From: a phage
Reading direction: 5' to 3' (one strand)
Assembly (NCBI GenBank): GCA_023343535.1
Contig: GCA_023343535.1_3944.1
DNA: 38,998 bases
Program-made: the position numbers and the translations under genes
Part shown: one piece after another, positions 1,600-38,653 of the stretch
Layout of the letters: every line of letters starts with the position of its first letter
Position numbering within the stretch: the stretch's first letter is position 1
The notes under the pieces: generated by a model
What the model saw: the letters and a program-made list of their open reading frames with translations, nothing else
Databases searched by the model: none
What the model was told of the DNA's origin: nothing

Positions 1600-1602
1600 A
1601 GT

Positions 1603-2703: not shown

Positions 2704-2896
2704 TTTTAACCTCTGAGTGATACCAAGTATTGCAAGCATTACATGCGTAAAGCTCTAAGTCATTTTTATCTGGTTTATGGAAACAGTTTGACCCACAACG
2801 ACACCGGAATAGTTTACCATCAACACGAAGAATGAATGTTTCAAGCTCACCATCTTCTGTAAGAACTGCGTTCTTAAATTTATCTTCTACAGTCAT
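2678..2896 (-). CDS. small zinc-ribbon protein
   Basis: Paired Cys motifs CRCGSNC ... CNACNTW; ATGA overlap with the upstream gene. Confidence 0.45.
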   Translation of the reverse strand: MTVEDKFKNAVLTEDGELETFILRVDGKLFRCRCGSNCFHKPDKNDLELYACNACNTWYHSEVKNDNSVQTK

Positions 2897-3150: not shown

Positions 3151-3367
3151 AGCTGTAAGATGTTGTTGTTTGAGAGTTTGGGCATCTGACAACAACAATA
3201 TCTCTGCTTATAGCATCACCATGTAACTTGTATACTCTGCAATCTTGCATCTCTGGTGGGAGGCTGTAAGAAGCATTTTTATCTTCATAAGAGGGGTTGC
3301 AGCCAGATAGAAAAATTACTCCAAGTGCAACCATTGCTTTCACACAACTCTTAACCTTATTGTTCAC
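3110..3367 (-). CDS. small lipoprotein (signal peptide with LSGC lipobox)
   Basis: N-terminus MNNKVKSCVKAMVALGVIFLSGC: positively charged n-region, hydrophobic core, lipobox Cys. Start is GTG. Confidence 0.5.
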   Translation of the reverse strand: MNNKVKSCVKAMVALGVIFLSGCNPSYEDKNASYSLPPEMQDCRVYKLHGDAISRDIVVVRCPNSQTTTSYSYGKNGESHTTVIE

Positions 3368-3503
3368 GATAGTCTACCTCTCTGTATGTTTTTAAATAGT
3401 GAGTGATGAGTTCTGGTAATTCACTACGTTTAACGTTTGAACGAAGAAGTGTCCAGTCAAAACCTTTACCAACCCTTCCCCAGAGACTGTACATTTTCTT
3501 CAT
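3357..3503 (-). CDS. candidate small protein (48 aa)
   Basis: ATG overlapping the stop of the upstream gene (ATGA); translation MKKMYSLWGRVGKGFDWTLLRSNVKRSELPELITHYLKTYREVDYREQ. Below the ORF-track cutoff. Confidence 0.25.
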   Translation of the reverse strand: MKKMYSLWGRVGKGFDWTLLRSNVKRSELPELITHYLKTYREVDYREQ

Positions 3504-3718
3504 AGCAACTCCAGAATATCAATACGTTCACCCTTAAGAACACCTGTACGGTCTCTTGCAATCTTACCATCAACGATAAGGATATGCGCGACCTTTAAAG
3601 AGTCACCATTAAAACCTTTTACGAACTTGCTAGGCATCACTACAATGGACATCTCCTGAATCAACTCTGGAGTATAGCAATTGTCGTGAAGTTGCTGAAT
3701 AACGTCTGCAAGTGTCAT
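3500..3718 (-). CDS. hypothetical protein
   Basis: ORF-track start 3733 is TTG; ATG at 3718 forms an ATGA overlap with the upstream stop. Confidence 0.45.
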   Translation of the reverse strand: MTLADVIQQLHDNCYTPELIQEMSIVVMPSKFVKGFNGDSLKVAHILIVDGKIARDRTGVLKGERIDILELL

Positions 3719-3924
3719 TTTTGATGTCTCCAATACTCAATATCAATAAGTTCTTGTGCAATACTTTTCAGATTACCTTTCAAGAAAACCTTCTCAGAAC
3801 CTGAAAGAGATGAATTGTCAATTAACCTGTTCATTCTCTCAAACAACTTCTGCTTACGGTTCTTGATAGTTTCCTTTGAAGCACCTTTCATCATCGCTGC
3901 ATGGGTTCTTCCACGGTGGCTCAT
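3715..3924 (-). CDS. hypothetical basic protein
   Basis: ORF-track start 3972 is GTG; ATG at 3924 is preceded by GGAGGG at 4-nt spacing. Confidence 0.45.
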   Translation of the reverse strand: MSHRGRTHAAMMKGASKETIKNRKQKLFERMNRLIDNSSLSGSEKVFLKGNLKSIAQELIDIEYWRHQK

Positions 3925-3986
3925 AAGCCCTCCTATACAAGAATATAGTATAAGGTACTCTTCCCTGAGCACCTTGTCAATACTAA

Positions 3987-6686
3987 TTAGTGTACTTCAA
4001 GCCAGCTTTTACCAACCTTACCAGTACCTGTAACAAGTGTTTCTTTCTTAAGACCTAAGTTCTTAGAAGCTTGTCCATAATACCAGTCAGTAACTGCTTT
4101 CACCTCTGCCGTCATACTTTCTGGACATTCCCAACTCGTCTCGTCATGATATGCGCAGAGTAAACGAGCACCAATAGCTGGTTTACGCCCATTTAACTTC
4201 ATCAATCCTTCGTCAATCATACGACGACAAGCAAGGTTAATTGCCTCATTTTGAATCTGAGCCTCTGAACCCATGAGCAAATAATTCAATAACTTATGTG
4301 GAGATTTACACCACAACCAAGCTCCAGCAACCTTTACAAAACCCCCTTTAGAGATTGCAGCAGTCTTACCAAACACCTCTTCAAGTACCTTTTTAGTTGC
4401 TTTGTAGTCAGCTTCCAAGTCATCTAGCAGCTTTTTAATTTTAGGCAAACGGATAAAGTAAGTCTGTTTAGTCAGCGCACCTTCCTGAGTAGTTGCAGCC
4501 TTAATCGTCTTAGCAAACTTCTCATCACCTGCACCGAACAGCAGTGCATAGATACCATTCTTAGCTTTCTTACGACCCTTACTAATCTCATGGAGGAGAT
4601 TCTCATCCTGAGTGGCTCGACAAGTCAAGATATCCTGCTCATCATTCAAGCTAAAGTAAATACTGTTCAATGTATGTGCATCAGTCCCTGAATAGACAAC
4701 GTACAGGTCATTCTCAGAGTCATAGCGAAGGTACTTGTCAATCTCTGGGTTGAGGTACTCATCAAAGTGTTTGCAGTAATAGCGTCCATCTTCTTGACGA
4801 ATGAACTCAATCTCTTCTTTACCTTGCGTTACCGCTTTGGTGAAGTCTTTATCACCCATAAAGTTACAAAGCAGAACTAGCTGGGCTGAGTTCATATCGA
4901 CAGAGACAACGTTAGTACCTTCCTCACAAATCCACACTGCCCTCATTGGTTCCCCATAGACAGCAGCACCAGACGGTACGTTTACAATACCATACTGTGT
5001 CATACGTCCAGTTGAAGTACCAAACACCATTGCACCAGCACTAAGGCGACCATCAGGACGAATCTGGTTCAACCAACCTTTCTCATCATCCTTTGAGTTC
5101 TCAATAGTTCTGCGTCGGTGCATCAAAGTGTAGTATTTCGCAATCTTCTGTCCAAGCTCACCTTCAATCGTATCATAAGATGATTCAGTAAGTTTTGGCG
5201 AAGTACGGATTAAGCAAGGCTCAAGCAAATCTGTGTACTTCTTCACAGACCAGTTATGCTCAATGTACTGTACACCTTCATGTTCAACATAACTCAAACC
5301 ACACCGCTCAACCATTTCCTGCCACTTAGGATGCTTTGTAATCATCTTTTTGTTGTCTTTGAAACGACAAACTTTGACAGGGCGACCATCTGAGTCTTTC
5401 TTGTAGTTCCAGTCATCTGGAATCCAACCAACTGATTTCAAGTAGTCTTTAACAACTGCTACCTGAGTCATACGAGAAACTTCAAACTCAATTGGTGTAT
5501 ACGGTGCATCAATCAAACCTGTGTAGCGACTTGACTCAAGTTCAAAGTGATTGACAACGTGACTGTTATAGTACTTCACAGTCTTGACTGTTTTTACTGG
5601 TTTCCAGTCTTTGCATTTTTTGCCAATCTTTGCATTCAACTCGTTGCAGATTGCACGAGCATCCTTCATCGCTACAAAACCCTCTTTGTACTCTTCACCA
5701 GTTACAGAGTTGGTTGGTGTATAGCAATTTCTCTTTTCAATATTAAAAATCTTTGTAGTTGGCTTACCAAATGGTTTGATTTCGTATGTCTGCATCTCGC
5801 CATTACGTACCTGCTGACGATACTTTGTCTTAGGGTACTTGGTAATTCTTTTCAGTCCATCTGCATGACCAAATGTTTCAACATACTCATTCCAAGCTTT
5901 TGCAAACTCTTCTCCAGTGACTTTACCTTTGGTCTTAATAGTTGGAGGTAGGTGTGGTTCAACCTCTGAAGCAAGCTCATTAGTCAACTTGTCAAGTTCC
6001 TTTACATGGAACTCCATAAGCTCTTTATCAGCTTTCCAGCCATTGATAGCTTGTTGACTCATCCAGAAAGATGTTTCTTTAGCTCGCATGTAAGTCTCAT
6101 AAGTGTCTATACCACACTTCTTAAGCTTGAGATACTCGTTATCAAGTGCCCGTTTAGTTTTGGCGTTAATACGGATATCTTCTACAACACGAGTGAAGAT
6201 TTCTGCATTCCACACACCCCAATGCTCAATCTCTGGTTTACGAACACCAACACGAGCACCCCATGCAGCCAAACCATGAGCACCTTTATAACCCTTCGGA
6301 GTTGGTCTATCCATCCACTGAACACGAGACTGGATAAGAGAATCCTGAAAGAAATTACTCCACGGCTTACATTTTGGATTATCAAAGTTCCATAAATCCG
6401 GTGCAATGTGATTGAAAACCCACCAGTCATAACCGAGACCGTTGTGGATGCAAAGACGTTTTGCCTTTAACGCAAACTCAATACCTTCACGTAAGCCACC
6501 CTTAATGTACTTGGTATACTTGTGACCGAGGATAGGTTCATCTGTAAAGACCCATACAGGTGGCTCTTCATCGTCAGATTTATAGTCTGCGAAAGCCATT
6601 ACGTGCACTTTAGTGAACTCAAGGAGTAAACCATCAGTTTCTGTATCACCAACCAAATGTAAGTTTTTAAAATCTACGTTTTCCAT
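3987..6686 (-). CDS. DNA polymerase, family A, with 3'-5' exonuclease domain
   Basis: Exo I LVGDTETDGL; Pol A motif A VSVDMNSAQLVLL; motif B RKKAKNGIYALLFGAG; motif C YHDE. ATG at 6686 preceded by GGGAG; ORF-track start 6716 lacks a Shine-Dalgarno sequence. Confidence 0.9.
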   Translation of the reverse strand: MENVDFKNLHLVGDTETDGLLLEFTKVHVMAFADYKSDDEEPPVWVFTDEPILGHKYTKYIKGGLREGIEFALKAKRLCIHNGLGYDWWVFNHIAPDLWNFDNPKCKPWSNFFQDSLIQSRVQWMDRPTPKGYKGAHGLAAWGARVGVRKPEIEHWGVWNAEIFTRVVEDIRINAKTKRALDNEYLKLKKCGIDTYETYMRAKETSFWMSQQAINGWKADKELMEFHVKELDKLTNELASEVEPHLPPTIKTKGKVTGEEFAKAWNEYVETFGHADGLKRITKYPKTKYRQQVRNGEMQTYEIKPFGKPTTKIFNIEKRNCYTPTNSVTGEEYKEGFVAMKDARAICNELNAKIGKKCKDWKPVKTVKTVKYYNSHVVNHFELESSRYTGLIDAPYTPIEFEVSRMTQVAVVKDYLKSVGWIPDDWNYKKDSDGRPVKVCRFKDNKKMITKHPKWQEMVERCGLSYVEHEGVQYIEHNWSVKKYTDLLEPCLIRTSPKLTESSYDTIEGELGQKIAKYYTLMHRRRTIENSKDDEKGWLNQIRPDGRLSAGAMVFGTSTGRMTQYGIVNVPSGAAVYGEPMRAVWICEEGTNVVSVDMNSAQLVLLCNFMGDKDFTKAVTQGKEEIEFIRQEDGRYYCKHFDEYLNPEIDKYLRYDSENDLYVVYSGTDAHTLNSIYFSLNDEQDILTCRATQDENLLHEISKGRKKAKNGIYALLFGAGDEKFAKTIKAATTQEGALTKQTYFIRLPKIKKLLDDLEADYKATKKVLEEVFGKTAAISKGGFVKVAGAWLWCKSPHKLLNYLLMGSEAQIQNEAINLACRRMIDEGLMKLNGRKPAIGARLLCAYHDETSWECPESMTAEVKAVTDWYYGQASKNLGLKKETLVTGTGKVGKSWLEVH

Positions 6687-6943
6687 TTTTACTCCCTCTA
6701 AAATCATTAACCTCATACATTACTGCAAAAAATTATAAAAAGCAAGTTGACAATGCACTTGACAAGGTGTTAATCTTTGCGAAGTGGGTTTTTACTTAAA
6801 AGGTTACTTAACAGTTTAACTATACAGAGACTTTAAAACTCTTAAAAGATTATTTAATAGCTTTTAAAAAGCTTTAAAGTATAACGTATAGAATACGTTA
6901 AGATAAAAGATTAAAACTTAATAGTTACTTAAAAGAGGCTTAC

Positions 6944-7366
6944 ATGCAGAAAATGTTTGTTCACCCAGACATAGCTGACTTTGTTAGAGCTTTGCAGAAG
7001 TTGGAAGAACTTGACATTGCTGCTCAACGGGAATATGCTCACCATCACAGGAGAATGGTTGATATACAACATGAAATAGAGTTATCTGAAAACTATGAAG
7101 ATGACTTAAAATGCTCTGTGTTTGAGCATATGAAAGATGTTGCTACAGCGAGACGTAAAGCTAAAGACACAGTTGCTTTACTAGATTCTCTTAAAAAGAG
7201 GTTGCAAAGTGGTACAGACCTGTGTAATCTAGCATCACTGATTAACGATGTTGAAACTTCTTGGGATAGGCACTATTATCCACGTTCTGAAAAGACACTT
7301 GACTTTTCTTCATCAGAAAACTTAAAATGTTCTAGAAAGAAACTTAACCAACTGAGAGAGAAATAA
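6944..7366 (+). CDS. hypothetical protein
   Basis: First gene of the rightward block; AGAGG Shine-Dalgarno; no recognisable motif. Confidence 0.5.
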   Translation: MQKMFVHPDIADFVRALQKLEELDIAAQREYAHHHRRMVDIQHEIELSENYEDDLKCSVFEHMKDVATARRKAKDTVALLDSLKKRLQSGTDLCNLASLINDVETSWDRHYYPRSEKTLDFSSSENLKCSRKKLNQLREK

Positions 7367-7367
7367 T

Positions 7368-8168
7368 ATGAATATCGATGTAGAAAAGATGCTTGAAGAA
7401 AAAGGTATTGACGAAGCATTTTTAATCAATGCCGTAGAAAGTATGGCTATGATTCTTCGTGGGAACAACTACACAGAACAGTTTATGCCTTCAAGCTATA
7501 ACTTGCCTGAAGACAAGTCTGATAACGGTGCTTTTGCAGAACAGGTTAACATGATGTTGACAGACACTACACTTGCTCTGGCATCTATTGCGGTTGGTGT
7601 TGATGCACTTGCTGAGTTCATCTTTTATGAAATGCAAAAGAATGACTATATCAGGATGTCAGACGAAGATAAGGAACTGTTGCTGACTAAGGACACTGAT
7701 TTCATTATTGATACGCTTATCTCATCAACAAGTGCTGTTATGGCTGCTCTTGAGAAGCGTATGGAAGAGAAACTTTCACGATATGAAAAACTTGATTGGG
7801 GCGTAGAAGAACTAAACCCACGAATCAAGGAGATTATCCAGCAAACTAAAGAGTCTTTGGAAGAAGCTGTTGAAAATGACTCTGTAGCTGATATAGAACC
7901 ACTTCAGGTGAAAGTTGCACTGATGATTCCAGCTATCTCTACGATGATGAATATCGTTGCACTAATCCAACTTTCACAGATGATGGGTATGAGTATTGAG
8001 TTCATTGAGGAGATGACTGGCGGTGTCAGTATGCAAGCAATCAATGATGTTTTGGTGAACATTGGTGCTTCAATCATTGAAGAGAAACTACGCATTAACT
8101 TCGGTGATGATTTTGTTAAGCAACTCTCAGCTATGGCTGAAAAAGAGTCTGCTGAGCAACTGCACTAA
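7368..8168 (+). CDS. hypothetical protein
   Basis: 266-aa ORF followed by intrinsic terminator 8187-8210. Confidence 0.5.
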   Translation: MNIDVEKMLEEKGIDEAFLINAVESMAMILRGNNYTEQFMPSSYNLPEDKSDNGAFAEQVNMMLTDTTLALASIAVGVDALAEFIFYEMQKNDYIRMSDEDKELLLTKDTDFIIDTLISSTSAVMAALEKRMEEKLSRYEKLDWGVEELNPRIKEIIQQTKESLEEAVENDSVADIEPLQVKVALMIPAISTMMNIVALIQLSQMMGMSIEFIEEMTGGVSMQAINDVLVNIGASIIEEKLRINFGDDFVKQLSAMAEKESAEQLH

Positions 8169-8210: not shown

Positions 8211-8229
8211 AGTAATTAAGGGAGATAAA

Positions 8230-8973
8230 ATGAGTAATATTATCGCATTTACTGGAAAGGCACGTTCTGGAAAAGACACCTCATGCTCTATTGTGAAGAA
8301 CATCTTAGAGGATGAGTACGGCTACAATGTTGCAGTGATGGCCTATGCAGACAACCTTAAGCTATCTGCATCAAGGATATTTGACCTAACTTGGAATGAC
8401 CTGTATGGTGAAACTAAAGAGACTCCACAGGTTTTTGACTTATCATATCCTGAACTAATGGTCAAAGTTACTGAAGCTATGGAGTTCACCTTTGAAGGTG
8501 AACGTTACCATATGGATTTTAAGCTTATGTCAGAGTTAACCGGACGATTAATCATGGAGCTTAAGAAGGTTGCTAAACCGACTCTATTAACACGTCTGGG
8601 ATTTAGCAAAAAGTATAGATTCTCATCAAGGCAAATTCAACAGATTTGGGGCACTGAAGTTATCCGTAAAGTTATGGGTGACAAGTTCTGGTCTAAAGAC
8701 CTCGAAAAACGAATGGTAAATTTCTTTGATGTTTGCTCACTTAGAAATCAAGAAGGTGTTGTTTTAATCAGTGATTTAAGATTTGACTCTGAAGCTGAGT
8801 GGCTGAGTAGATTTGCACACCAAACTATTGAAGTAAAAAGAGACAATGTGGACAAAGTTTCATCACATGTTTCAGAAAATGGCATTTCTACAAAATATGA
8901 GCGTGACATTATTCATAATAATGGTACTCTTGAAGACCTTGAGAGCAAACTAAGAGCTATCCTGAAGATTTAA
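8230..8973 (+). CDS. deoxynucleoside monophosphate kinase-like P-loop protein
   Basis: N-terminal IIAFTGKARSGKDTS resembles the phage dNMP kinase P-loop (xxSGxKRSGKDT); AGGGAG Shine-Dalgarno. Confidence 0.6.
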   Translation: MSNIIAFTGKARSGKDTSCSIVKNILEDEYGYNVAVMAYADNLKLSASRIFDLTWNDLYGETKETPQVFDLSYPELMVKVTEAMEFTFEGERYHMDFKLMSELTGRLIMELKKVAKPTLLTRLGFSKKYRFSSRQIQQIWGTEVIRKVMGDKFWSKDLEKRMVNFFDVCSLRNQEGVVLISDLRFDSEAEWLSRFAHQTIEVKRDNVDKVSSHVSENGISTKYERDIIHNNGTLEDLESKLRAILKI

Positions 8974-8981
8974 AAGAGAGA

Positions 8982-9182
8982 ATGAAGATGAGAGTAAAAG
9001 ACAATTTTAAAGTTATTGACCACCGTTTAGTGGAACTCTCATCTCTTTCCAATGAGGTAATGATTGAACGTCTTAAGAGAGTTGAATCACGAAGGAAAGA
9101 GATTGCAGATGAAATTCATGAACTGGACAAGATTGAAAATGGATTGAAGGCAGAACTACAACGAAGAGGTGCTAATGTCTAA
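8982..9182 (+). CDS. small coiled-coil protein
   Basis: 66-aa charged ORF overlapping the primase-helicase start by 8 nt. Confidence 0.4.
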   Translation: MKMRVKDNFKVIDHRLVELSSLSNEVMIERLKRVESRRKEIADEIHELDKIENGLKAELQRRGANV

Positions 9183-11160
9183 AGGTCGTAAATTGAAAGA
9201 GGCTGGTCAGTTTATTGGCCATTGTGCATGTCCACGTTGTGGTTCATCAGATGCTGGTTCAATCTATCATCATGACGATGACTCTTATTCGATGACTTGC
9301 TTTAGTTGTAACAAAGGTTTCCCAGAGTGGGATTTTGATAAAGGACAAATCGTGAGCACTTATTCTACTGGTTCAGACAATAAAAACCGTACTTTCCGTG
9401 GAATGGATTTAGACGATGTAAAAGAAAACCTAGAAGCAATGGACTTGAAAGACAGGAAGATTCCTGCAAAAGTCCTTGAACGCTTAGGTATAAAGGTTGA
9501 CATTGACAGTGATGGTGAAATTGATGCGCACTTCTACCCAACTTACAAACGTAATGAAGATGGTAAGCTAGAACATGTTGGCTACCGTGTTCGTCACCGT
9601 TACCCAGAAGACCATCCAAAAGAACACCTACGAGGTAAGCTAAAAGACTTCTCAGGTGGTGTTGGAGACATTAAAGGTGAACTGGCAATGTTCGGTTCAT
9701 GGATTGCTCCAGAAGGTGGTAACCGTCTATTCATCTGGGAAGGTGAGATGGAATGTGCGACAGCAATCTATATGACTTCTCTTGCGATTAAGGACAAGTC
9801 TCGTCGTAAGAATTACTGTCACGTATCTGTTCCATCGGGTGCAAACATTAAGTCTATCAAAGACAACTATCAGTACATCACATCATTTGATGAGATTTAC
9901 TTGTGCTTTGATAATGATGAAGCAGGTGCTAAAGCTACCAAAGAGGCTGCTGGTATCCTTCCGATTGAGAAGGTTCGTTTATTCCAGTATCCAGAGGGTG
10001 TAAAAGACCTTAACGAATGGTGGACAAAGTTCTATAAAGAGAAAGATACAGTTCTGGAAGGATTTAAGCAGCGTATCTACAATGCACCTCGTTACTGTCC
10101 TGCTGGTATCAAGAACTTCGCAGATGGTTTTGAGGCAATGAAGAATCGTGGTCAGATTCCATTGATTCCTTTCCCAGAATCTTTCGGAGATTTGAACAGA
10201 CTGACTTATGGTGGTTATGGTCTAGGTGAGATTACAACTCTGGCAGCACCATCTTCAGTGGGTAAATCAGCATACACTCGTGAAATGATTTACACAGCTT
10301 GGAAAGATACAGATTACAATATTGGTGTAATTCCTGTAGAGGATACCTATGAAGAGTTGATGGAGATGCTCTGTGCAATCCACCTGAGCAAGCAGATTTC
10401 TGAGATTCCTTATGACGAACGCGATTGGGATGAATTGAAGGAAGCACACGCAGAACTGTCTAAAGGTCGTCGTATCCACATCGTAGACCATCAAGGGGCA
10501 ATTGACCAAGATAACTTGCTGGAGTTTGTTGACTACCTTGTTAACAGCTTAGACTGTAAGATTATTATTCTTGACCCTATTACGTTGGCTCTGTCACGTT
10601 CAGATACGGATGAAGAGGAAGTTTTGTCTGAGCTATTGCGTCGTTGCAAACGCTACCAGTATGCACAAGTGAACGTCTGTCACGTTCGTAAGAGTGCAGG
10701 TGGTCAGAAGGCTAACTCTGAAGGTGGGGATATCTCTGAAGAGGATATTAAAGGCTCTGGTGCGTATTTCCAGATTTCTATGAACAACATTCTGTTAATG
10801 CGTAACAAGGTTGACCCAGACCCTGTTAAGAAAAACTTGACAAAAATCAAGTTAACTAAATGTCGTCGTCACGGTAAGTCAACGGGTATTGCTGGTCATA
10901 CTTGGTACAATCCAGATACAGGACGTCTCATTAAAGCATCTGGTTGTGGAGTTGACATTGATGGTGCAGCAGAAAATATTCGCCAACAGTTTGGCATTGG
11001 TGAAGCTGAAGACCATTACGATGACTCTTTGCCACATTATGAGGATGAAGTGTTTGACCGTGAGACTGGTGAAGTCTATACTGAAGAGCAGCGTCAAAGC
11101 TCAACGATTCCACCTGTATTAAGTGAGGATGCAGATGACTGCCCATTCGAAACTGAGTGA
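9175..11160 (+). CDS. bifunctional DNA primase-helicase (T7 gp4-like)
   Basis: Cys4 zinc finger CACPRCGSSD...CFSCNKG; TOPRIM IWEGEMECA and FDNDEAG; DnaB-type Walker A AAPSSVGKSAYT. ORF-track start 9169 is GTG; ATG at 9175 has AAGAGG 5 nt upstream. Confidence 0.9.
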   Translation: MSKGRKLKEAGQFIGHCACPRCGSSDAGSIYHHDDDSYSMTCFSCNKGFPEWDFDKGQIVSTYSTGSDNKNRTFRGMDLDDVKENLEAMDLKDRKIPAKVLERLGIKVDIDSDGEIDAHFYPTYKRNEDGKLEHVGYRVRHRYPEDHPKEHLRGKLKDFSGGVGDIKGELAMFGSWIAPEGGNRLFIWEGEMECATAIYMTSLAIKDKSRRKNYCHVSVPSGANIKSIKDNYQYITSFDEIYLCFDNDEAGAKATKEAAGILPIEKVRLFQYPEGVKDLNEWWTKFYKEKDTVLEGFKQRIYNAPRYCPAGIKNFADGFEAMKNRGQIPLIPFPESFGDLNRLTYGGYGLGEITTLAAPSSVGKSAYTREMIYTAWKDTDYNIGVIPVEDTYEELMEMLCAIHLSKQISEIPYDERDWDELKEAHAELSKGRRIHIVDHQGAIDQDNLLEFVDYLVNSLDCKIIILDPITLALSRSDTDEEEVLSELLRRCKRYQYAQVNVCHVRKSAGGQKANSEGGDISEEDIKGSGAYFQISMNNILLMRNKVDPDPVKKNLTKIKLTKCRRHGKSTGIAGHTWYNPDTGRLIKASGCGVDIDGAAENIRQQFGIGEAEDHYDDSLPHYEDEVFDRETGEVYTEEQRQSSTIPPVLSEDADDCPFETE

Positions 11161-11230
11161 TAGTTATAAAAGAGAGGGGTTCACACCCTTCTTTGAAGGA
11201 AAAAGTTTAAATAAATTTCAGGAAGAGTGT

Positions 11231-11259
11231 TTGACAAAGATTGATAGGTTCTATAGAAT
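11231..11259 (+). promoter_or_regulatory. sigma70-like promoter, TTGACA-N17-TAGAAT
   Basis: TTGACA 11231-11236, 17-bp spacer, TAGAAT 11254-11259. Confidence 0.45.
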
Positions 11260-11412
11260 GCTCCTCATGAAATGCGATGGGGAAGTTGAGATAAAAGAAG
11301 ATTTCCACCAGAGCATGATTACAGTCATCATTGCGCTGCCTCAGCATAATATTAGCTGGCTGTTTATAATTAAAGAAAATGTGTTTGAATATCAAGTATA
11401 TCGGAGAATATC

Positions 11413-11562
11413 ATGAAACACTCTAAAGCATTTGAAAAAGTTTTTGAGGATTCCTTAAAAGCCACTGCTGGAAAACCAGCAAAATACTATGAAGAAAAAC
11501 GTGTAAGAACTGGAAAAACTGCACGTAAAGCAGCTTCTAAAGATAAGCACAACTTCCAGTAA
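11413..11562 (+). CDS. candidate small lysine-rich protein (49 aa)
   Basis: GGAGA 5 nt upstream of ATG; translation MKHSKAFEKVFEDSLKATAGKPAKYYEEKRVRTGKTARKAASKDKHNFQ. Below the ORF-track cutoff. Confidence 0.35.
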   Translation: MKHSKAFEKVFEDSLKATAGKPAKYYEEKRVRTGKTARKAASKDKHNFQ

Positions 11563-11569
11563 TTAGTAT

Positions 11570-11598
11570 TTGACAATAGAGTATCAACAAATTAGAAT
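11570..11598 (+). promoter_or_regulatory. sigma70-like promoter, TTGACA-N17-TAGAAT
   Basis: TTGACA 11570-11575, 17-bp spacer, TAGAAT 11593-11598; about 37 nt upstream of the ATG at 11635. Confidence 0.5.
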
Positions 11599-11634
11599 TG
11601 GTACTCTTCATAAATTGAGATAGAGGTTTAAATA

Positions 11635-12492
11635 ATGTCTAAAGTTGTTAAAATGAAAGCTCCGGTAGAGAAGTACAATGGTACTGAACGTCAAACTCTG
11701 CGTTACCTGCTGAAAGATGTCTGGTTTTATTACCTGAACACTTCACCACGTCCGGGAAAAGGTAAATCTATTGATAAGAAATTCCCAGGAAAAGATTGTA
11801 ACTACAGCGTATCAATTCTGGCAGAAGACGGTAACAAACTATTTAAAGAGTTTACTAAGTCTAAGAAAAATCCAGAAGGCTGGGATAAAGTTACTACTGA
11901 AGCAGTTGATGCAGATGACTTCGAAGAGAAGTTTGGTTGTAAACCACCTTTTGAAGCAGACACTTACTACATCTTGAAAGTAAGTCGTGCAGCAGCTTAT
12001 AAAGATGGTGCTGTATGGACAGCTAAACAGTCATTCCCTGTAATGCTGATTGAAGAAGTAAATGGTAAGCGCGTAGCTGTTAAGCAGCCGATGAAGAAAA
12101 TCAAAGCTCAAGCATCTGATAAACATGAAGATGACAAGAACTATGACGTAATTCATCCAGATATCGCAGTTGGTAACGGTTCTTTTGGTAGTGTGATTCT
12201 TTCTACTCACTTCTACACTTTTGAGAACAATGTTCTGACAAAACCTATTCAGGAACAGTTTATCATTGATACTCTTGTACCTTACACTGGTGGTAACGGT
12301 GCTAATGGTGAACCTGAACTTGATGAAGATGAACTGGCTATGCTTGGTCTTGATGGTGTTGAAGATAACGGTGAAATCACTGAAGAAGACGCAACAGACC
12401 ATAAATCCTCGAATGCTTCTGATGATGGTGATGATGAAGATTTGCCAGACCCAGATGACGAAGAAGATGAAGACTTCGATACAGAAGACTAA
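11635..12492 (+). CDS. putative single-stranded DNA-binding protein (T7 gp2.5-like, acidic C-terminal tail)
   Basis: Extremely acidic C-terminus DDGDDEDLPDPDDEEDEDFDTED ending near an aromatic residue; position between primase-helicase and exonuclease. Assignment rests on architecture, not motif. Confidence 0.45.
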   Translation: MSKVVKMKAPVEKYNGTERQTLRYLLKDVWFYYLNTSPRPGKGKSIDKKFPGKDCNYSVSILAEDGNKLFKEFTKSKKNPEGWDKVTTEAVDADDFEEKFGCKPPFEADTYYILKVSRAAAYKDGAVWTAKQSFPVMLIEEVNGKRVAVKQPMKKIKAQASDKHEDDKNYDVIHPDIAVGNGSFGSVILSTHFYTFENNVLTKPIQEQFIIDTLVPYTGGNGANGEPELDEDELAMLGLDGVEDNGEITEEDATDHKSSNASDDGDDEDLPDPDDEEDEDFDTED

Positions 12493-12510
12493 TCTCTAAA
12501 AGTTACTTTA

Positions 12511-12538
12511 AAGCCCTGTACTTAGTATGGGGCTTTTT
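12511..12538 (+). terminator. intrinsic terminator
   Basis: AAGCCCT / GGGGCTT stem, 11-nt loop, TTTTT. Confidence 0.45.
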
Positions 12539-12554
12539 CATATGGAGAGCCATA

Positions 12555-13595
12555 ATGGAGAAGTACACATTAACAAAACTTCCCGATTCAGTTACACATG
12601 TTTTTATTGACTCTGACAGTATTGCCTATAAAGGTGCTTGTGTAGTTGAGAAAGCAAAATATAAATATGTCAATAAACTCACAGCAGAAGAATCTGAACC
12701 ATTTGATAATGCGAAAGATGCTGCAAGATGGTTAGCAGACCAGAGAATCCTTGTGGAAGAACTTGGCCTGACATTTGATGAAGATGAATGGGAAAGACAG
12801 ACTTGGAAAGAAGCTAAGAGTGAAAAAGAAGCTATCATGGCTACTCAACAGGTTCTTCAGGAATGGCTTAAGGTTGTTGGTAAAGAGAGAACTTGGGTAG
12901 GTTATTTAACAGAGAAAGGTGTGCATAAACATAAAGACATTAAAGGTCTTGAGCACCAATATCAAGGTAACCGTAAAGATGCTGTCACACCAACACACTT
13001 AGTCGCTTGTCGTGAATATCTTTTATCCAGACCAGAGTTCAAGCTCTTAAAGGGTGGCTTCGAAGCCGATTCAATCGTAATTGCTAAAGCTGAAAAGATG
13101 GGTAAGAAAGCTGCTCTTATGAGTATTGACAAAGACCTTCGACAAGCTGAAGGGACGTATTGTATTGATATGACTTATGAAAAGTCACCACTAATTTTTA
13201 TCGCTGACAATAATGTTGGTGATATCTGGGATTGCCCTATCAAATCAAAACCAAAAGCTGCAAAAACAGTTGGTGTAGGTTTTAAATTCTTGTGTTATCA
13301 GGCTGTTGCTGGGGATAATGCAGACAACTACTTTGGTCTTAAAGGTGCTGGTAAAGTAGCTGTGATGAACGCTTTAGAGGGTAAAGAGACCTACAAAGAG
13401 TGTCTTGATGCTATCTATGAACTCTATGCTAAAAAAGAGTCTTACACCTATGTATCATGGGATGGACAGACTGTTACAAAGACACCGTTAGAGTTAATGG
13501 AACAGCATTTCTGGGTGGCATATCAAGAGAGAAATCCAAAAGATAATTTCTCTTTTAAGAAATATAATTGGGAGCCGTGTATGAATGAAGATTAA
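12555..13595 (+). CDS. 5'-3' exonuclease / flap endonuclease (T7 gp6-like)
   Basis: VFIDSDSIAY, SIDKDL and AGDNADNYFGLKGAGK resemble the T7 gene 6 exonuclease blocks (VMDGDW, SCDKDF, GDxxDxYxGIxGxG). Confidence 0.6.
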   Translation: MEKYTLTKLPDSVTHVFIDSDSIAYKGACVVEKAKYKYVNKLTAEESEPFDNAKDAARWLADQRILVEELGLTFDEDEWERQTWKEAKSEKEAIMATQQVLQEWLKVVGKERTWVGYLTEKGVHKHKDIKGLEHQYQGNRKDAVTPTHLVACREYLLSRPEFKLLKGGFEADSIVIAKAEKMGKKAALMSIDKDLRQAEGTYCIDMTYEKSPLIFIADNNVGDIWDCPIKSKPKAAKTVGVGFKFLCYQAVAGDNADNYFGLKGAGKVAVMNALEGKETYKECLDAIYELYAKKESYTYVSWDGQTVTKTPLELMEQHFWVAYQERNPKDNFSFKKYNWEPCMNED

Positions 13596-14082
13596 AGGAT
13601 TTGGCAATTGCCCCACCTATGGTCATTGGGTATCTTTATGTGGGGAAGTTGACCCCACTAAACATTTTGGCTTTGTCTATTTAGTACACTGTAAGAAGAC
13701 CGGACAATATTATATCGGAAAGAAACAACTTAACAGTGTGACAAAAAGAAAAGTTGCTGGGAAGACTCGGAAGAAGGTAGTCACTAAGGAGAGTGATTGG
13801 ATGACTTACGAAACATCTTCTGAGTATATTAAAAAAGATATTGAGAGTTTTGGAAAAGAGTCTTTTGACTTTTACATTATCCAAACCTACTACACAAAAG
13901 GTGGTCTAGTTTATGGTGAAGCAAACCTTCAACATAAGTTCGATGTAATGACAAAAAGGATTGACTCGAAGCTCAGACTCTTCTACAATGCCAATATTGC
14001 AGCAATTAAGTTTATTACTAAAGAAACTTATGAAGATGCTGAAAAAAGAATCCATAAGGTAATGAAAGCAAATTGTGCTTGA
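13585..14082 (+). CDS. GIY-YIG nuclease-like protein (possible homing endonuclease)
   Basis: GFVYLVHCKKTGQYYIGKK matches the GIY-(x10)-YIG spacing; overlaps the exonuclease stop. Confidence 0.4.
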   Translation: MKIKGFGNCPTYGHWVSLCGEVDPTKHFGFVYLVHCKKTGQYYIGKKQLNSVTKRKVAGKTRKKVVTKESDWMTYETSSEYIKKDIESFGKESFDFYIIQTYYTKGGLVYGEANLQHKFDVMTKRIDSKLRLFYNANIAAIKFITKETYEDAEKRIHKVMKANCA

Positions 14083-14352: not shown

Positions 14353-15083
14353 AAAACTGGAACCTTCGTTGTGGAAACACTCAAAAGCAACCTTACAGTG
14401 ATGAGTATTGGGAATCTTTAAAATCTCAATCTCTGTGTATGCTTGAAGAAGCAAAAGAGCTTGTAAAAGCAATTGAAGAGAAAGACCCCATTGAGACACT
14501 GGATGCTCAGGCGGATTTGCAATATGTTCTTGACGGATTGATTTATCTGTCACAACATGACCATAACGGTGCTATGAAAGCTGTTTGCCATAATAATGAC
14601 CTGAAGTACACAGATGACTATGAAGAAGCTTTAAAACGTCTTGCAGACATTGAAAAGCGTACTGGTCAAGAGTGTATTATCAGAATGTCAGTAGTTGATG
14701 GTAAAGAGTGGTATGCGATTGTTCGTGCAGCCGATGGGAAGATTATGAAGCAATCAAATCTCCCTAAAGTACAGCTTGGTGAATACATTGTAGAGCTTGA
14801 AAGCCAAGAACTTTTTGTGGTAGTATCTGAGACATGCGTTATCTGCAAAGGTATTGTAGGTAGCTTAAAGGATTTGGATGTAGATGGTTTTGTAGAAGTT
14901 AATCCAATTACCTCTAAAGCAGATAAAGACTTCTGTAAAGAGAACGGACTATGGATTGCAGATATTGTCTACTATGATGGTGAGCAGTTCCATGTAACCT
15001 CATACCCGAAACTGAATTATGATGCTAATAACCTGAAGTGCTGGTTAAAAGGGGTTGGTTATAATGGATTCACAGAACATTAA
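14328..15083 (+). CDS. hypothetical protein
   Basis: 251-aa ORF with AAGGAG Shine-Dalgarno. Confidence 0.5.
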   Translation: MFNSRESVKNWNLRCGNTQKQPYSDEYWESLKSQSLCMLEEAKELVKAIEEKDPIETLDAQADLQYVLDGLIYLSQHDHNGAMKAVCHNNDLKYTDDYEEALKRLADIEKRTGQECIIRMSVVDGKEWYAIVRAADGKIMKQSNLPKVQLGEYIVELESQELFVVVSETCVICKGIVGSLKDLDVDGFVEVNPITSKADKDFCKENGLWIADIVYYDGEQFHVTSYPKLNYDANNLKCWLKGVGYNGFTEH

Positions 15084-15387
15084 TAAAGAAGGTGTGGCTC
15101 AGAAGAGCCACTTCTCAAACTACAATATTTCTATGACGGTGTTTATGAATGACCCGTTACTAGAAAAATATGGTGAGACTCCAGATACACTTCTGGACAA
15201 TGAACAAGTTTTAAAAGCAGTCCTGTACAAATACGGGATTGATATTGAGAAAGAGTATTCCTTTGAAATCTGCCAACACAGGAATACTTTCGGTAAAGTT
15301 GTGATGGCTCCACTCTTTATGGGTGTAGAAAGGACTGACTATGGTTGGTTGTATCTAAAAAGAAACTTGGAGAAATACCGTGTCTAA
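15064..15387 (+). CDS. hypothetical protein
   Basis: ORF-track start 15055 is TTG; ATG at 15064. Confidence 0.45.
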   Translation: MDSQNINKEGVAQKSHFSNYNISMTVFMNDPLLEKYGETPDTLLDNEQVLKAVLYKYGIDIEKEYSFEICQHRNTFGKVVMAPLFMGVERTDYGWLYLKRNLEKYRV

Positions 15388-15718
15388 AGCAAAAAAGCTA
15401 TCTTATGATGACATTATCTCAGGTGTTAAGCTAGGTGTTGACAGCATCGGACAAGACGTTAAGCACGGAGACACAGTTATGTACTGTGATGACCGAAGAG
15501 GTAGAAGTGCAATCTTGTTTGGAAGAGTTGTTTGCAAGATGCGAGGTAATTACGTTGTTGCAGACATGGATGTGAACGTTACACAAAAACTTGAAACAAT
15601 TATGGATGATAATACATCATCATGGTTCTCCCTGAATTGTATGCACACTTCTTCAGTCACAAAGGTAAGTGATAAGTTTTATGATATGTGGCAGAATGAG
15701 CAAATTTTCAAGATTTAA
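15380..15718 (+). CDS. hypothetical protein
   Basis: GTG start overlapping the upstream stop; GGAG 7 nt upstream. Confidence 0.4.
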   Translation: MSKAKKLSYDDIISGVKLGVDSIGQDVKHGDTVMYCDDRRGRSAILFGRVVCKMRGNYVVADMDVNVTQKLETIMDDNTSSWFSLNCMHTSSVTKVSDKFYDMWQNEQIFKI

Positions 15719-32307: not shown

Positions 32308-32535
32308 ATGACTACTAAAACTAAAGCACAGATTGATGCAGAAATTTACGAACTGGTTAAAGAAGGTAAGCTGACTAAAACAGCGATTGCACAGAAGTTC
32401 AACACTTCAACCCGTTCAGTTGGTCGTGCTGTAGAGCGTCATGAAGCAACCTTAAAAGGCAAGAAAAAGGCAGCTTCTAAACCAGCTACAAAGACTTTGA
32501 AGCAAGTTGCTAAGACCTTTAAAAAAGAAAGCTGA
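32308..32535 (+). CDS. small basic HTH-like protein; possibly the N-terminal part of an rIIB-like gene
   Basis: ATG start with AGAGAGAG Shine-Dalgarno; LTKTAIAQKFNTSTRSVGRAVER helix-turn-helix-like; ends in an A-rich tract where the next ORF continues in the +1 frame. Confidence 0.4.
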   Translation: MTTKTKAQIDAEIYELVKEGKLTKTAIAQKFNTSTRSVGRAVERHEATLKGKKKAASKPATKTLKQVAKTFKKES

Positions 32536-33145
32536 CAAGCCAGTTAAAAAGGCTGTTAACGAGGATGTACAGAAAGCTCCGGTAAATAAACTGCATGAAG
32601 CTATGCAGAATGGCAACCAGATTGAGTACATGATTACTGGCGACTCTGTTATCATGACTTTCGGTGCAGATTCTGAAATCGTTGAATCTACCCATCCGAA
32701 CTACAAAGAAATCGTAATGGCTGTTGTATCCGGTGAGTATAAGAAAGCTTTCGAACTGATGAACATTCGTAAGTCTATCGAAAACTTCACTCAGGGTGCT
32801 ATCACCATCAAAGGTGACAAGTTATTCTACGGTGCTGTTGAGATGCGTTCTACTCTGGTTGACCGTATTCTTCACATGATGAAGACTGGAGATAAAGGTT
32901 TTGAACGCCTTGTGATGTTCTTCGAAAAACTGATGGAAAACCCATCTAAAGATTCTGTAGAACAACTTTGGGGATTCGTATCTCACCTTGATGTTGAAAT
33001 TGATGAAGAAGGCTACATCATTGGTTGGAAGAAAGTCTCTACTCGTGAAGGCAAGCTGGTTGACTCCCGCACCTGCAAAGTACCTAATGATTTGGGTAAC
33101 ATTGTAGAAATGCCACGTTGGATGGTTGATAATAACCTAACGTGA
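32507..33145 (+). CDS. hypothetical protein (start uncertain; possibly the central part of an rIIB-like gene)
   Basis: ORF-track start is TTG at 32507; first in-frame ATG is at 32603 and has no clear Shine-Dalgarno sequence. Confidence 0.4.
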   Translation: MLRPLKKKADKPVKKAVNEDVQKAPVNKLHEAMQNGNQIEYMITGDSVIMTFGADSEIVESTHPNYKEIVMAVVSGEYKKAFELMNIRKSIENFTQGAITIKGDKLFYGAVEMRSTLVDRILHMMKTGDKGFERLVMFFEKLMENPSKDSVEQLWGFVSHLDVEIDEEGYIIGWKKVSTREGKLVDSRTCKVPNDLGNIVEMPRWMVDNNLT

Positions 33146-33417
33146 CTTGCTCTCAAGGTCTTCACGTTGGTGCTTGGGATTATGTTCGTTGCTTCTCAGG
33201 TGATACAATCCTGAAGGTTCGTGTCCACCCACGAGATGTTGTATCTGTTCCAACTGATTACAACGATATGAAGATGCGTTCGTCTCGTTATGAAGTTGCA
33301 GCAATCGTCGATAACCAACGTAAAGTGCTGAAAGAATGGGATGGCAAGACTGAAGCTTTGCATGTCATCGTTGGCACTGCTGGTGAACTCATCTCCCAAC
33401 GTAAACGTGAAATCTAA
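33142..33417 (+). CDS. hypothetical protein (GTG start overlapping the upstream stop; possibly the C-terminal part of an rIIB-like gene)
   Basis: GTGA start/stop overlap; a same-frame stop lies only 9 nt upstream of the GTG. Confidence 0.35.
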   Translation: MTCSQGLHVGAWDYVRCFSGDTILKVRVHPRDVVSVPTDYNDMKMRSSRYEVAAIVDNQRKVLKEWDGKTEALHVIVGTAGELISQRKREI

Positions 33418-33434: not shown

Positions 33435-33456
33435 GGCTGCTTCGGCGGCCTTTTTT
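33435..33456 (+). terminator. intrinsic terminator (UUCG tetraloop)
   Basis: GGCTGC-TTCG-GCGGCC then TTTTTT. Confidence 0.6.
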
Positions 33457-33457
33457 A

Positions 33458-33486
33458 TTTGTATTTTGTGCAGAGTGCTGTATAAT
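33458..33486 (+). promoter_or_regulatory. possible promoter (weak -35, consensus TATAAT -10)
   Basis: TATAAT at 33481-33486 with TTTGTA 17 bp upstream; about 30 nt before the Shine-Dalgarno and ATG of 33518. Confidence 0.3.
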
Positions 33487-36768: not shown

Positions 36769-37554
36769 ATGGGTATTGTAAAAATCATCAATGGTGATAT
36801 CTTTGCTGCATTTGATAAAGGTAAGTTTGACATCATTGGTCACGGTTGTAATTGTATGAATTTAATGGGTGCAGGTATCGCTGACAAGATTTCTAAACTT
36901 TACCCAAAAGCATATGAGACCGATACAGAAGTTTACCTATATGCAGGTGGCATAGGTCACAAACCCTGTGAAAATTTACTGGGTAATTTCTCTGTAGTAC
37001 GTTTAAAACAAGGTCGTATAGCTAACCTTTACACTCAGCTTAAGACTGGTAAAGATGCCCGATACAGTGCTTTAGAGTCATCTTTGAAACAGCTTAACAG
37101 ATACTGTGAAGTCAATCAGTTGAAGAAAGTCGGGTTACCTATGATTGGTACAGGCATCGGTGGGCTAGACGCTCAAGCCGTCACAGTTATCATCAATCAG
37201 GTTATGAAGAGTGTAGATGTTTATCTATATGTCTATGAAGGAGAGATGTACCACAAGTTACTCTCAGGTTGGAAGAACTACTGTGAACCAGAATACTTTG
37301 CAGGTGTAGTTGTGTTCACAGATAACGCAGTTACCCTCTTCAGACGAAGAAAAGGTAAGATACATCAAAGTAACCCTCCGGTTGAAAAGATGTCTCTAAG
37401 TAACGCTCTAGTTACCCACCTGTCGAAGAGCAATCACAGGATTGCAGTAACATTTGGCAGTGATGCAGATGCTTACATCTATGCAAGAACTGATGAGGAT
37501 ATCGAGACAGTTTTCTCTTCACCAGAAGTTACCTTCTTAGACGCAAAGAACTAA
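36769..37554 (+). CDS. macro-domain protein (ADP-ribose binding/processing) with C-terminal extension of unknown function
   Basis: GDIFAAFDKGKFDIIGHGCNCMNLMGAGIADKI parallels the macro-domain GDIT ... AIVNAANxxLxxGGGVxxAI block; VGLPMIGTGIGGLD parallels the second block (hAFPxIsTGIyGyp). Confidence 0.65.
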   Translation: MGIVKIINGDIFAAFDKGKFDIIGHGCNCMNLMGAGIADKISKLYPKAYETDTEVYLYAGGIGHKPCENLLGNFSVVRLKQGRIANLYTQLKTGKDARYSALESSLKQLNRYCEVNQLKKVGLPMIGTGIGGLDAQAVTVIINQVMKSVDVYLYVYEGEMYHKLLSGWKNYCEPEYFAGVVVFTDNAVTLFRRRKGKIHQSNPPVEKMSLSNALVTHLSKSNHRIAVTFGSDADAYIYARTDEDIETVFSSPEVTFLDAKN

Positions 37555-37584
37555 GAAACTCCGTAGAATATTCACAATAGTCTA

Positions 37585-37628
37585 AGCCTTCCTTATCTGG
37601 TAAATTTTTCAGGTAAGGAGGGCTTTTT
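37585..37628 (+). terminator. putative intrinsic terminator (long-loop hairpin + U-run)
   Basis: AGCCTTCCTTA / TAAGGAGGGCT arms, then TTTTT. Confidence 0.4.
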
Positions 37629-37822
37629 CATTTCAGATTTGTGCAGGTAGAGTTCTGTAGAGAAATCTGTAGAGAGAATTTTAAACTCCAAAGAGAAAAT
37701 TCATTTTCAAACTGTGCAGGTAATCTCCAAAGAGCTTTTTCATTTTCAAAACGTGCAGACCCCGCTCAGGTCGGGCAAGAAAAATCATTTTAGAATTGTG
37801 CAGGTAGGTGGGTGTAGGTGGG
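37627..37822 (+). repeat. array of four imperfect direct repeats (about 23 bp, consensus TTCATTTTCARAnYTGTGCAGGTA) with nested short repeats; iteron-like
   Basis: Copies at 37627-37650, 37700-37724, 37739-37760 and 37786-37808; also CTCCAAAGAG x2 (37686-37695, 37725-37734), TCTGTAGAG x2 (37654-37674) and GTAGGTGGG x2 (37804-37822). Confidence 0.7.
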
Positions 37823-37983
37823 GCTGTCGCCATTTCTCACAAGGCTACCACATCTAAAAAGAAAAGTCAACAGAAAAATTTGTAGCGGATTGAAAAATAA
37901 TTCTTGATTGTAGTTCTGTTTTGTGGTAGTCACGCGCACCCGTTTCATTACAATCTTTGCAAAAAATATTTTTAAAATTCCTA

Positions 37984-38012
37984 TTGACTCTTTGAGTATG
38001 GTTATCTAATAT
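37984..38012 (+). promoter_or_regulatory. sigma70-like promoter
   Basis: TTGACT 37984-37989, 17-bp spacer, TAATAT 38007-38012; about 50 nt upstream of the ATG at 38063. Confidence 0.5.
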
Positions 38013-38062
38013 TTGCATCAGACGGGCAATCAAGCCCACTTCCTAAACTGGAGAATCTAAAA

Positions 38063-38269
38063 ATGCTGTACAGTCGCGAATTGATGGTTACAACTAACAT
38101 TAACACAAAGGCAAAACGTTTTTACATGCAAATCTGTGGCGTGTGGTCCAGAATATCAGAAGCTGACTATTGCAACTATGTAGAAACGGCTATTAATTCT
38201 AATTGCTATCTGACAAGAAATACTAAGAAGTTTACAAGACAGACAGCAATTTACTACTACGATAAATAA
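38063..38269 (+). CDS. hypothetical protein
   Basis: 68-aa ORF; leader CCTAAACTGGAGA shared with the next gene. Confidence 0.45.
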   Translation: MLYSRELMVTTNINTKAKRFYMQICGVWSRISEADYCNYVETAINSNCYLTRNTKKFTRQTAIYYYDK

Positions 38270-38356
38270 AGTACTTTACAAGGGGCTTATAGTTCGATAA
38301 AGTAAGCCCCAGATAAAGAGCTTTATCAAATTAACCCCCTAAACTGGAGATTCAAA

Positions 38357-38653
38357 ATGAAATTATCGAATAAAGTTCGTGAAAATCTAAGCAAGTTACT
38401 CAACAAAATCGATTTTATCGAGACATCAAGGAATAATCATGATGTTATGGAATGGTTGCACGGCAAAATAAAAGGCCGTCGCGTAGTGATTTGCTTATGG
38501 AATAGTTGCAGGGAGTATAAAAAACCTGTATTGCAAGTAAATATTTATGATGATACTTTTAAAAGTCCAGTAAAGTCTAAAAGCGACTTATTAGAATCCT
38601 ATGAGATAACTGTAAATGGCAAAGTATCACGCAAAGAGGAAACACCATGTTAA
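38357..38653 (+). CDS. hypothetical protein
   Basis: 98-aa ORF with the same CCTAAACTGGAGA leader. Confidence 0.45.
   Translation: MKLSNKVRENLSKLLNKIDFIETSRNNHDVMEWLHGKIKGRRVVICLWNSCREYKKPVLQVNIYDDTFKSPVKSKSDLLESYEITVNGKVSRKEETPC

Follow-up and report, generated by a model that had tools for sequence, protein, structure and literature searches.

Results

The DNA analyzed here (the window, 38,998 nucleotides) is part of a Felixounavirus genome, that of a Felix O1-like phage. Felix O1-like phages are classic tools of diagnostics and biocontrol. A BLAST search with the region described below against GenBank phages returned 288 records, nearly all of them Felixounavirus and other Ounavirinae, with tootiki (97.6%) and Barry (96.9%) as the top relatives. 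The annotation of Barry, a complete genome of 87.7 kb, served as a guide to gene order in the window. At its start lie DNA ligase and DNA polymerase genes on the minus strand, followed by a divergent region at ~6.7–6.9 kb. The plus-strand genes beyond it are those for a primase-helicase, an exonuclease and ribonucleotide reductases, then NAD salvage genes, rIIA and rIIB; the primase-helicase is T7 gp4-like (Pfam Toprim and DnaB_C). After rIIB come a few small genes and then a macro-domain gene on the plus strand ('phosphatase', T4 Tk.4-like; 36769–37554; Pfam Macro, E = 6.9e-8). Between this gene and the small early genes that run from 38063 onward is a 508-bp non-coding gap, which is among the three largest annotation-free stretches in Barry. 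The gap contains an array of four direct repeats on the plus strand (37615–37809).

The terminator and the strong promoter that an initial annotation had placed on either side of the repeats were both recovered. The upstream operon ends in an intrinsic terminator on the plus strand with a 17-pair stem and an 8-nt loop (37584–37625, extending to 37633 with its T-run). The same terminator is annotated in phage Barry, and its T-run doubles as the T5 tract of the first repeat unit. Downstream, the first early promoter of the terminal gene block (37961–38012, plus strand) comprises a UP-like stretch at 37961–37979, TTGACT at 37984–37989, a 17-bp spacer and TAATAT at 38007–38012, matching the promoter called earlier at 37984–38012. 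Judged against the known consensus, its A/T-rich stretch is presumably a near-consensus UP element. The nearest repeat unit ends ~175–178 bp before the −35 element, and no promoter was found within the array on either strand.

The DNA between array and promoter falls into distinct parts. A variable segment (37807–37861) is present in the window as a G-rich allele with 47% AT. At the same position, Felix O1, Mooglevirus and Kolesnikvirus carry a C-rich, G-poor tract unrelated to it; inversion of one allele into the other was considered and rejected, as the two have no direct or inverted similarity. Next is a nearly invariant block, AAAAGTCAACAGAAAAATTTGTAGCGGATTGAAAAATAATTCTTGATTG (37862–37912, plus strand), seen in a conservation profile of 19 relatives and 84% identical to Mooglevirus. 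This block includes a degenerate fifth repeat copy (37866–37888), which rates 61% as a member of the same repeat family. The AT-rich segment noted previously exists but is modest, with 74% AT at 37862–37915 and 83% at 37955–37983. The AT content of the array itself equals the genome average (63%).

The four imperfect copies reported initially are real. The word TCATTTNNNNNNTGTGCAG occurs without mismatch at 37628, 37701 and 37785, and with one mismatch at 37740. Start-to-start distances are thus 73, 39 and 45 bp, the first two as given before and the last instead of 46 bp. With up to two mismatches allowed, TCATTTNNNNNNTGTGCAG has 7 matches in the whole window against 2.3 expected, a count reached in 0 of 100 shuffles. 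The earlier unit length of ~23 bp proved too short: when copies from three genera were aligned on GTGCA, the unit extended over ~37–39 bp. It consists, in order, of a G-containing arm (CTCCAAAGAG, CGGGCAAG or AAGGAGGG in the three-genus alignment), an A5 or T5 tract, and a core of the form TCATTTY-N5-6-YGTGCA(G/T).

All four units lie on the plus strand. Unit 1 (37615–37652, core 37623–37647) reads AAGGAGGGC-TTTTT-CATTTCAGATT-TGTGCAG-GTAGAG and is 96% identical to Mooglevirus. Unit 2, CCAAAGAG-AAAAT-TCATTTTCAAAC-TGTGCAG-GTAATC, occupies 37688–37725 with its core at 37696–37720. It is followed by unit 3 (37727–37764, core 37735–37759), which reads CCAAAGAG-CTTTT-TCATTTTCAAAA-CGTGCAG-ACCCCG, and by unit 4 (37772–37809, core 37780–37804), which reads CGGGCAAG-AAAAA-TCATTTTAGAAT-TGTGCAG-GTAGGT. 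A weight matrix trained on the repeat copies of the three genera gave these units 32.9, 31.6, 32.2 and 28.0 bits, respectively. The runner-up site scored 17 bits in the window as well as in the complete genome of Barry (87.7 kb), where the motif is confined to the array; the highest score in 50 shuffled genomes was 22 bits. A dispersed promoter motif was also considered and is ruled out, the motif being genome-unique and the units having no −10 element. No internal inverted repeat (dyad symmetry) was found in the units. The array likewise shows no 10–11-bp AA/TT periodicity, and intrinsic curvature from phased A-tracts is not supported.

Shorter duplicated words had been described as interleaved with these copies, and all are present in duplicate. 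One of them, CTCCAAAGAG, is not a separate word but the 5′ arm of units 2 and 3. Another, TCTGTAGAG, reflects a 12-bp tandem duplication (AGAGTTCTGTAG / AGAAATCTGTAG; 37649–37672, plus strand) within the long spacer between units 1 and 2, a spacer that is absent in Kolesnikvirus. The remaining word, GTAGGTGGG, belongs to the variable G-rich segment, which many relatives replace with the unrelated C-rich one.

Comparison with related phages, suggested initially as a check, showed that the repeats are kept in position, orientation and copy number (three to five) across the Ounavirinae. The array is retained in Felixounavirus, Mooglevirus, Kolesnikvirus and an uncultured sister lineage (L037/L137, L138) that lacks cultured relatives in GenBank and has only ~38% (30–41%) protein identity with the window. 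The shared layout is a macro gene, then three to five same-strand units, then a strong sigma-70 promoter 173–218 bp after the last unit, a distance that applies to all four lineages. It recurs in Felix O1 and in Suspvirus-sized contigs. The upstream neighbor of the array is the macro-domain gene in every lineage examined, and the gene order around it is alike in Felix O1, Maleficent, M7, SB18 and the uncultured L037/L137. Contact of the array with a terminator is not conserved, none being evident in L137.

Spacing is looser. Mooglevirus Maleficent has distances of 75/41/45 bp, Kolesnikvirus M7 and SB18 have almost pure tandem units at 37/37/39 bp, and the uncultured L137/L138 lineage has 36/112/36/38 bp. 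Si3-type relatives keep three units and have lost unit 2. Erwinia phages can be aligned with the window solely across repeats 2–4. The spacers vary among relatives in both sequence and length: in the comparison with Maleficent, identity is 86% for the cores and 55% for the spacers (Fisher p = 1.5e-7). The array region is non-coding, since the spacers differ in length by numbers not divisible by three and consecutive units would be read in different frames, which bears out the earlier statement that no convincing ORF covers it. Judging from these alignments, it is selected at the DNA level. Comparable arrays were found neither in 185,579 bacterial species genomes, nor in plasmids (to none of which there was any sequence similarity), nor after the macro gene of T4-like phages and others.

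The initial reading of the units as repeated protein-binding sites is well supported, since the cores are conserved and the spacers are not, and the pattern persists at ~38% protein identity. On this comparative basis, the units very probably serve as docking sites for one sequence-specific DNA-binding factor. Each holds three conserved sub-blocks ~11–12.5 bp apart. This spacing and the asymmetry of the sites suggest a monomer or head-to-tail unit that approaches the DNA from one face and spans two to three consecutive major grooves. The motif hardly changes at 35–40% protein identity and the adjacent block is not conserved, so the factor is more likely to be a host protein or one of the core phage proteins than to be encoded by the neighboring genes.

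No candidate binding protein was identified among the flanking and replication-module genes: the array-flanking genes (macro protein, small proteins) encode no Pfam DNA-binding domain, and no DNA-binding match came from the uncharacterized proteins of the replication module. A 99-aa Cro/CI-type HTH protein is encoded outside the window; proteins of this type usually bind palindromes. The units contain no conserved IHF or Fis consensus site. To our knowledge, neither the consensus sequences for sigma-E, sigma-54, MarA/Rob, PhoB/PhoP and ArgR nor those for CRP, NtrC, Ter/Tus and dif offer a convincing fit. Resemblance to the DnaA box depends on the lineage. In Kolesnikvirus M7, the 3′ half of each of the four units is one mismatch from a DnaA box (CTATGCACA or TTATGCACG). 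The 3′ halves of the L137 units are one to three mismatches from the box TTWTNCACA, and that array is directly followed by a run of TTWTTAACA-type words and an exact TCATTCACA. Resemblance is poor in the units of the window (ACCTGCACA, 3 mismatches).

The position of the array within the genome was taken from phage Ro111lw, whose record carries both copies of its terminal repeat. There it occupies 79,767–79,945; the right terminal repeat follows ~6.4 kb further on, and the distance to the right genome end is 7.0 kb (8.05%). Direct terminal repeats of 613 bp in Ro111lw (PMC6454146) and 581 bp in Pr103Blw (PMC8303462) have been reported from two independent PhageTerm analyses. Both GenBank records have identical repeats at each end; the repeats of the two phages are homologous to each other and correspond to Barry 14492–15075. 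The repeats, which the window does not contain, carry CTTGTTA(A/G)/TTAACA words of their own. The stretch from the array to the right end consists of only ~15 small early genes with strong promoters, then a convergent non-coding region containing the terminal repeat. In M7, whose record was opened in the convergent non-coding region, 7.8 kb separate the array from the record end, and the terminal layout is alike in Barry, M7 and the uncultured lineage. The proteins of the terminal block are poorly conserved: Barry and M7 have six of them in common, and the uncultured lineage has no detectable counterpart. On the plus strand of Barry, GC content and GC skew drop directly after the array, with gene orientation unchanged. 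Given variable block genes, a conserved array and this drop, the terminal early genes form a plastic block with the array at its inner border.

The mapped termini also contradict a packaging site, one of the roles proposed initially. As a pac- or cos-like recognition site, the array would be bound by terminase, and repeat arrays are indeed typical of the binding sites of terminase small subunits. The R sites of lambda cosB, the pacL/pacR boxes of SPP1 and the pac hexamers of P1 are likewise clustered, repeated protein-binding words at a unique non-coding locus. Those sites, however, lie within ~200 bp of the cut, whereas the array is 6.4–7 kb from the mapped termini, and the identical 581-bp and 613-bp terminal repeats ~6.4 kb downstream have their own repeat words. 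The GenBank record of KhF1 and several metagenome contigs do end in the array region. The terminal redundancy of KhF1 is just 90% identical, which points to an assembly artefact; the contigs are interrupted either in the variable segment with its two alleles or at repeated promoters, one of them being a chimera at that point. These ends are explained by assembly effects and were rejected as real termini. Taken together, a role in packaging is extremely improbable.

Discussion

The array belongs to a familiar class, that of oriented protein-binding repeat arrays in phage non-coding DNA. We tentatively raise the possibility that it is an iteron-like origin element. This reading is favored by the genome-unique oriented array, the large non-coding gap, the very strong adjacent promoter and the T7-like replisome, and by the Kolesnikvirus 3′ halves that are one mismatch from a DnaA box. 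Several protomers bound to the array could build a nucleoprotein complex, as on plasmid or lambda iterons, and transcription from the adjacent, very strong promoter might assist it. The complex would mark the site at which the T7-type replisome (gp4-like primase-helicase, Pol A) first reaches the DNA. As in T7, the origin would then be close to the early-gene end of the genome. Replisomes of the T7 type are able to initiate at an origin that is activated by transcription and situated toward that end.

The likeness to known iteron origins is partial. The lambda ori with its O protein, the Rep iterons of P1, F, R6K and pPS10, and T4 oriE are likewise built from oriented direct repeats of an asymmetric ~20-bp site. 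The array shares with iteron origins its three to five copies, its genome-unique occurrence and its place in a non-coding gap next to a transcribed region; four same-orientation copies of an asymmetric site (three to five in relatives) satisfy the usual definition of at least three such copies of ~17–22 bp. The origin proposed initially as one option is possible, but it would lack helical phasing, an unwinding element beside the repeats and a gene for an initiator. Iteron origins are phased at ~11 or 22 bp, whereas spacings here are 36–46, 73–75 and 112 bp, not in multiples of ~10.5–11 bp, and are not conserved across the four lineages. Iteron origins also have an adjoining AT-rich unwinding element and an initiator gene in cis. 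The array has neither: it adjoins the 47% AT variable segment, and no gene for a cognate Rep or O-like initiator lies beside the repeats. Easily melted DNA is found no closer than the 29-bp UP-like element ~150 bp away; this element ranks only ~10th–25th genome-wide, and its region is outside the top 100 for low stability in 100-bp windows. An adjacent AT-rich repeat run occurs solely in the uncultured lineage.

Phasing, conserved spacing, unwinding element and initiator gene are the reasons for keeping the origin reading at the level of a tentative suggestion. It is further weakened by the lack of conservation of the genes between array and end across lineages and by the poor DnaA resemblance in the lineage of the window. 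The parallel with T7 is similarly mixed. Short direct terminal repeats, the gp4-like primase-helicase and the Pol A-type polymerase are T7-like. The array is 8% from one end beside strong promoters, and the T7 primary origin ~15% from an end. T7 itself, however, needs no iterons. Its origin lies downstream of its promoters and is AT-rich without repeated binding units, whereas the array is upstream of its promoter, and host RNA polymerase is used at that promoter, unlike at the T7 origin. Elsewhere in the genome, the least stable duplex regions are around the terminal repeat and in the divergent region between the polymerase and primase operons. The GC skew changes sign at this divergent region, and beyond the array the plus-strand skew declines instead of increasing. 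Both duplex stability and skew point to the divergent region (window 6717–6943) as the more conventional origin candidate. Our literature search on iterons, origins or replication initiation in this phage group found no experimental data.

Almost as likely as an origin, and so also to be entertained with reserve, is a boundary or regulatory role, in which a bound factor acts at the border of the rII-macro operon and the terminal early-gene block. Such a factor might block or insulate against read-through and supercoil diffusion, or modulate the first, very strong early promoter from afar by wrapping or looping, activating it early or later shutting it off; these variants together are possible at the same guarded level. 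The array lies precisely in the interval from a strong intrinsic terminator to the first early promoter, and its distance to the promoter (173–218 bp) is roughly kept in four lineages while the intervening sequence is unrelated. GC content and skew of same-strand genes shift at the array, and in the ancestral allele it is followed by a C-rich, G-poor, rut-like tract. A motif that barely changes in divergent phages would fit a host factor present at the moment of entry. The genome paper of Felix O1, moreover, states the timing of transcription, that is, its temporal control, to be unknown. On the other hand, the sites precede the promoter by 175–360 bp, beyond the reach of ordinary sigma-70 activators or repressors, and similar early promoters further downstream have no such sites. 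A consensus-like UP element also implies that the promoter should not need an activator. No enterobacterial factor consensus known to us fits the whole unit, with no match for IHF or Fis. The operator array suggested initially does not hold in its classical form, as the sites have no dyad symmetry, are at least 175 bp from the promoter and are absent from the other early promoters. A non-classical regulatory role may still apply.

The 8% position invites comparison with T5, whose first-step-transfer DNA makes up 7.9% of the genome; according to a preprint, its border is formed by a large untranslated region that is rich in repeats and carries DnaA boxes (bioRxiv 10.1101/866236). By this analogy, Felix O1-like myoviruses might have a T5-like genome partition, with the array as a cis-acting stop or anchor site, either a DNA-entry pause or a site of host DnaA capture like the injection stop signal region of T5; we regard this as unlikely. 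The array would be bound by a host factor (DnaA, for instance), by a virion protein or by an early protein. Once the right-terminal 8%, with its small host-takeover genes under very strong sigma-70 promoters, had entered or become exposed, the DNA would be held at the array, so that the terminal genes would be expressed first and the remaining genome would enter or be used later; the array might also titrate DnaA. An untranslated, repeat-rich region does lie at the inner border of the terminal early block ~8% from the end (8.05% in Ro111lw), with only small early genes between, and it is conserved in the group while the neighboring small early genes vary. DnaA-box-like words also occur in some Felix O1-like lineages, as the 3′ halves in Kolesnikvirus and L137. 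Yet the T5 region is inside a 10-kb terminal repeat and consists mostly of inverted repeats and palindromes with paired DnaA boxes, whereas here the terminal repeat is only ~0.6 kb, the array is outside it, and the repeats are simple and direct. The DnaA match is poor in the lineage of the window, and the best-conserved half, TCATTTY, is not a DnaA box. The DnaA model for T5 is itself a proposal, and we found no report of two-step DNA transfer in Felix O1-like myoviruses. That the repeats act instead as RNA, in a non-coding RNA or as RNA-binding-protein sites on read-through transcripts, is very unlikely. All units are oriented with transcription and no ORF is conserved, but the array is directly behind a 17-pair intrinsic terminator and has no internal promoter on either strand. 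Rfam gave chance-level matches only and no family, and the folding energy equals that of shuffled sequence on both strands (z = 0.17 and −0.39). The A5 and T5 tracts interchange between units, which is sensible for a DNA motif and not for an RNA motif. It is just as doubtful that the array is a functionless remnant of tandem duplications of the terminator tail. Unit 1 overlaps the terminator T-run, and a weak look-alike overlaps another terminator (33450–33474), with a score within the chance range. Against such a remnant, at least four copies with both core words survive where other non-coding DNA is unalignable and proteins are 35–40% identical, and the cores are significantly better conserved than the spacers.

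The array appears to have gone undescribed so far. The Felix O1 genome paper lists other repeats and not these, and we found no description of the array in the literature, including that on transcription start sites in this group. It is the only subfamily-wide non-coding element besides promoters and the surroundings of the terminal repeat. Experiments on so small and concrete a target could locate the origin or show how the terminal early block is set apart. For phage engineering, the gap looks like a handy insertion site and is probably not a neutral one.

A divergent, very AT-rich region flanked by the DNA polymerase and primase-helicase operons (window 6717–6943) is an origin candidate of a more conventional kind than the repeat array (37615–37809), because its duplex stability is among the lowest in the genome and the GC skew changes sign there. 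The repeated words GTTACTTAA(A/C)AG and CTTAAAAG occur within it.

The four direct repeats of the array (+ strand) are directly followed by a variable segment of the replacement type (37807–37861). The allele in the window is G-rich (GGTGGGTGTAGGTGGGGCTG...), whereas in Felix O1, Mooglevirus and Kolesnikvirus its place is taken by an unrelated tract that is C-rich, G-poor and rut-like; no similarity between the two alleles was found, either direct or inverted. The segment is also a frequent site of breaks or chimeras in metagenome assemblies. Next comes a near-invariant block, AAAAGTCAACAGAAAAATTTGTAGCGGATTGAAAAATAATTCTTGATTG (37862–37912), which contains the degenerate fifth repeat copy (37866–37888). 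Across Felixounavirus and Mooglevirus this block is more conserved than the promoter itself (37984–38012), and it is unexplained by promoter, IHF or Fis consensus. On a contig of an uncultured sister lineage (L137), about ten TTAACA words follow one another immediately 3' of the array (about 3360–3510), some of them matching the DnaA-box variants TTATTAACA and TCATTCACA.

CTTGTTA(A/G)/TTAACA words, in both orientations, are also dense in the short direct terminal repeat of Felixounavirus and its flank (14492–15600 in the complete relative Barry, L012, outside the window; 1–581 in Pr103Blw, L006). The GenBank 'complete genome' of KhF1 (KT184313.1; L004/L005) opens within the array's intergenic region and has a terminal redundancy of 377 bp. 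With only 90% identity, this redundancy seems to stem from faulty assembly or a mixed population rather than from a true terminal repeat.

Beyond the promoter, successive small early genes are preceded by copies of a module that combines a 5' leader with a ribosome-binding site, ATCAA...CCTAAACTGGAGA.TC.AAAATG (38029–38061 and 38325–38357), and an inverted repeat resembling a terminator lies between them (38266–38326). These elements agree with what has been described for Felix O1, where promoter/terminator cassettes recur. In Barry, the terminal early-gene block (8220–14026) differs in base composition from the genes that precede the array on the same strand (1–7712), with a GC content of 36–37% versus 39–40% and a GC skew of 0.02–0.07 versus 0.11–0.14.

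The rIIB homologue (window 32308–33417) is split into three ORFs (32308–32535, 32507–33145 and 33142–33417). Two frameshifts relative to Barry cause the split: an A-run near 32521 has one extra base (+1), and one base is missing near 33138 (-1). They reflect either a pseudogene or two sequencing errors of the homopolymer type. A lone array-like word, CTTTTTTATTTGTATTTTGTGCAGA (33450–33474), scores 17 bits, within the chance range. It overlaps the T-run of the post-rIIB terminator and runs into the TTGTAT-N16-TATAAT promoter of the SLT-domain gene (33518).
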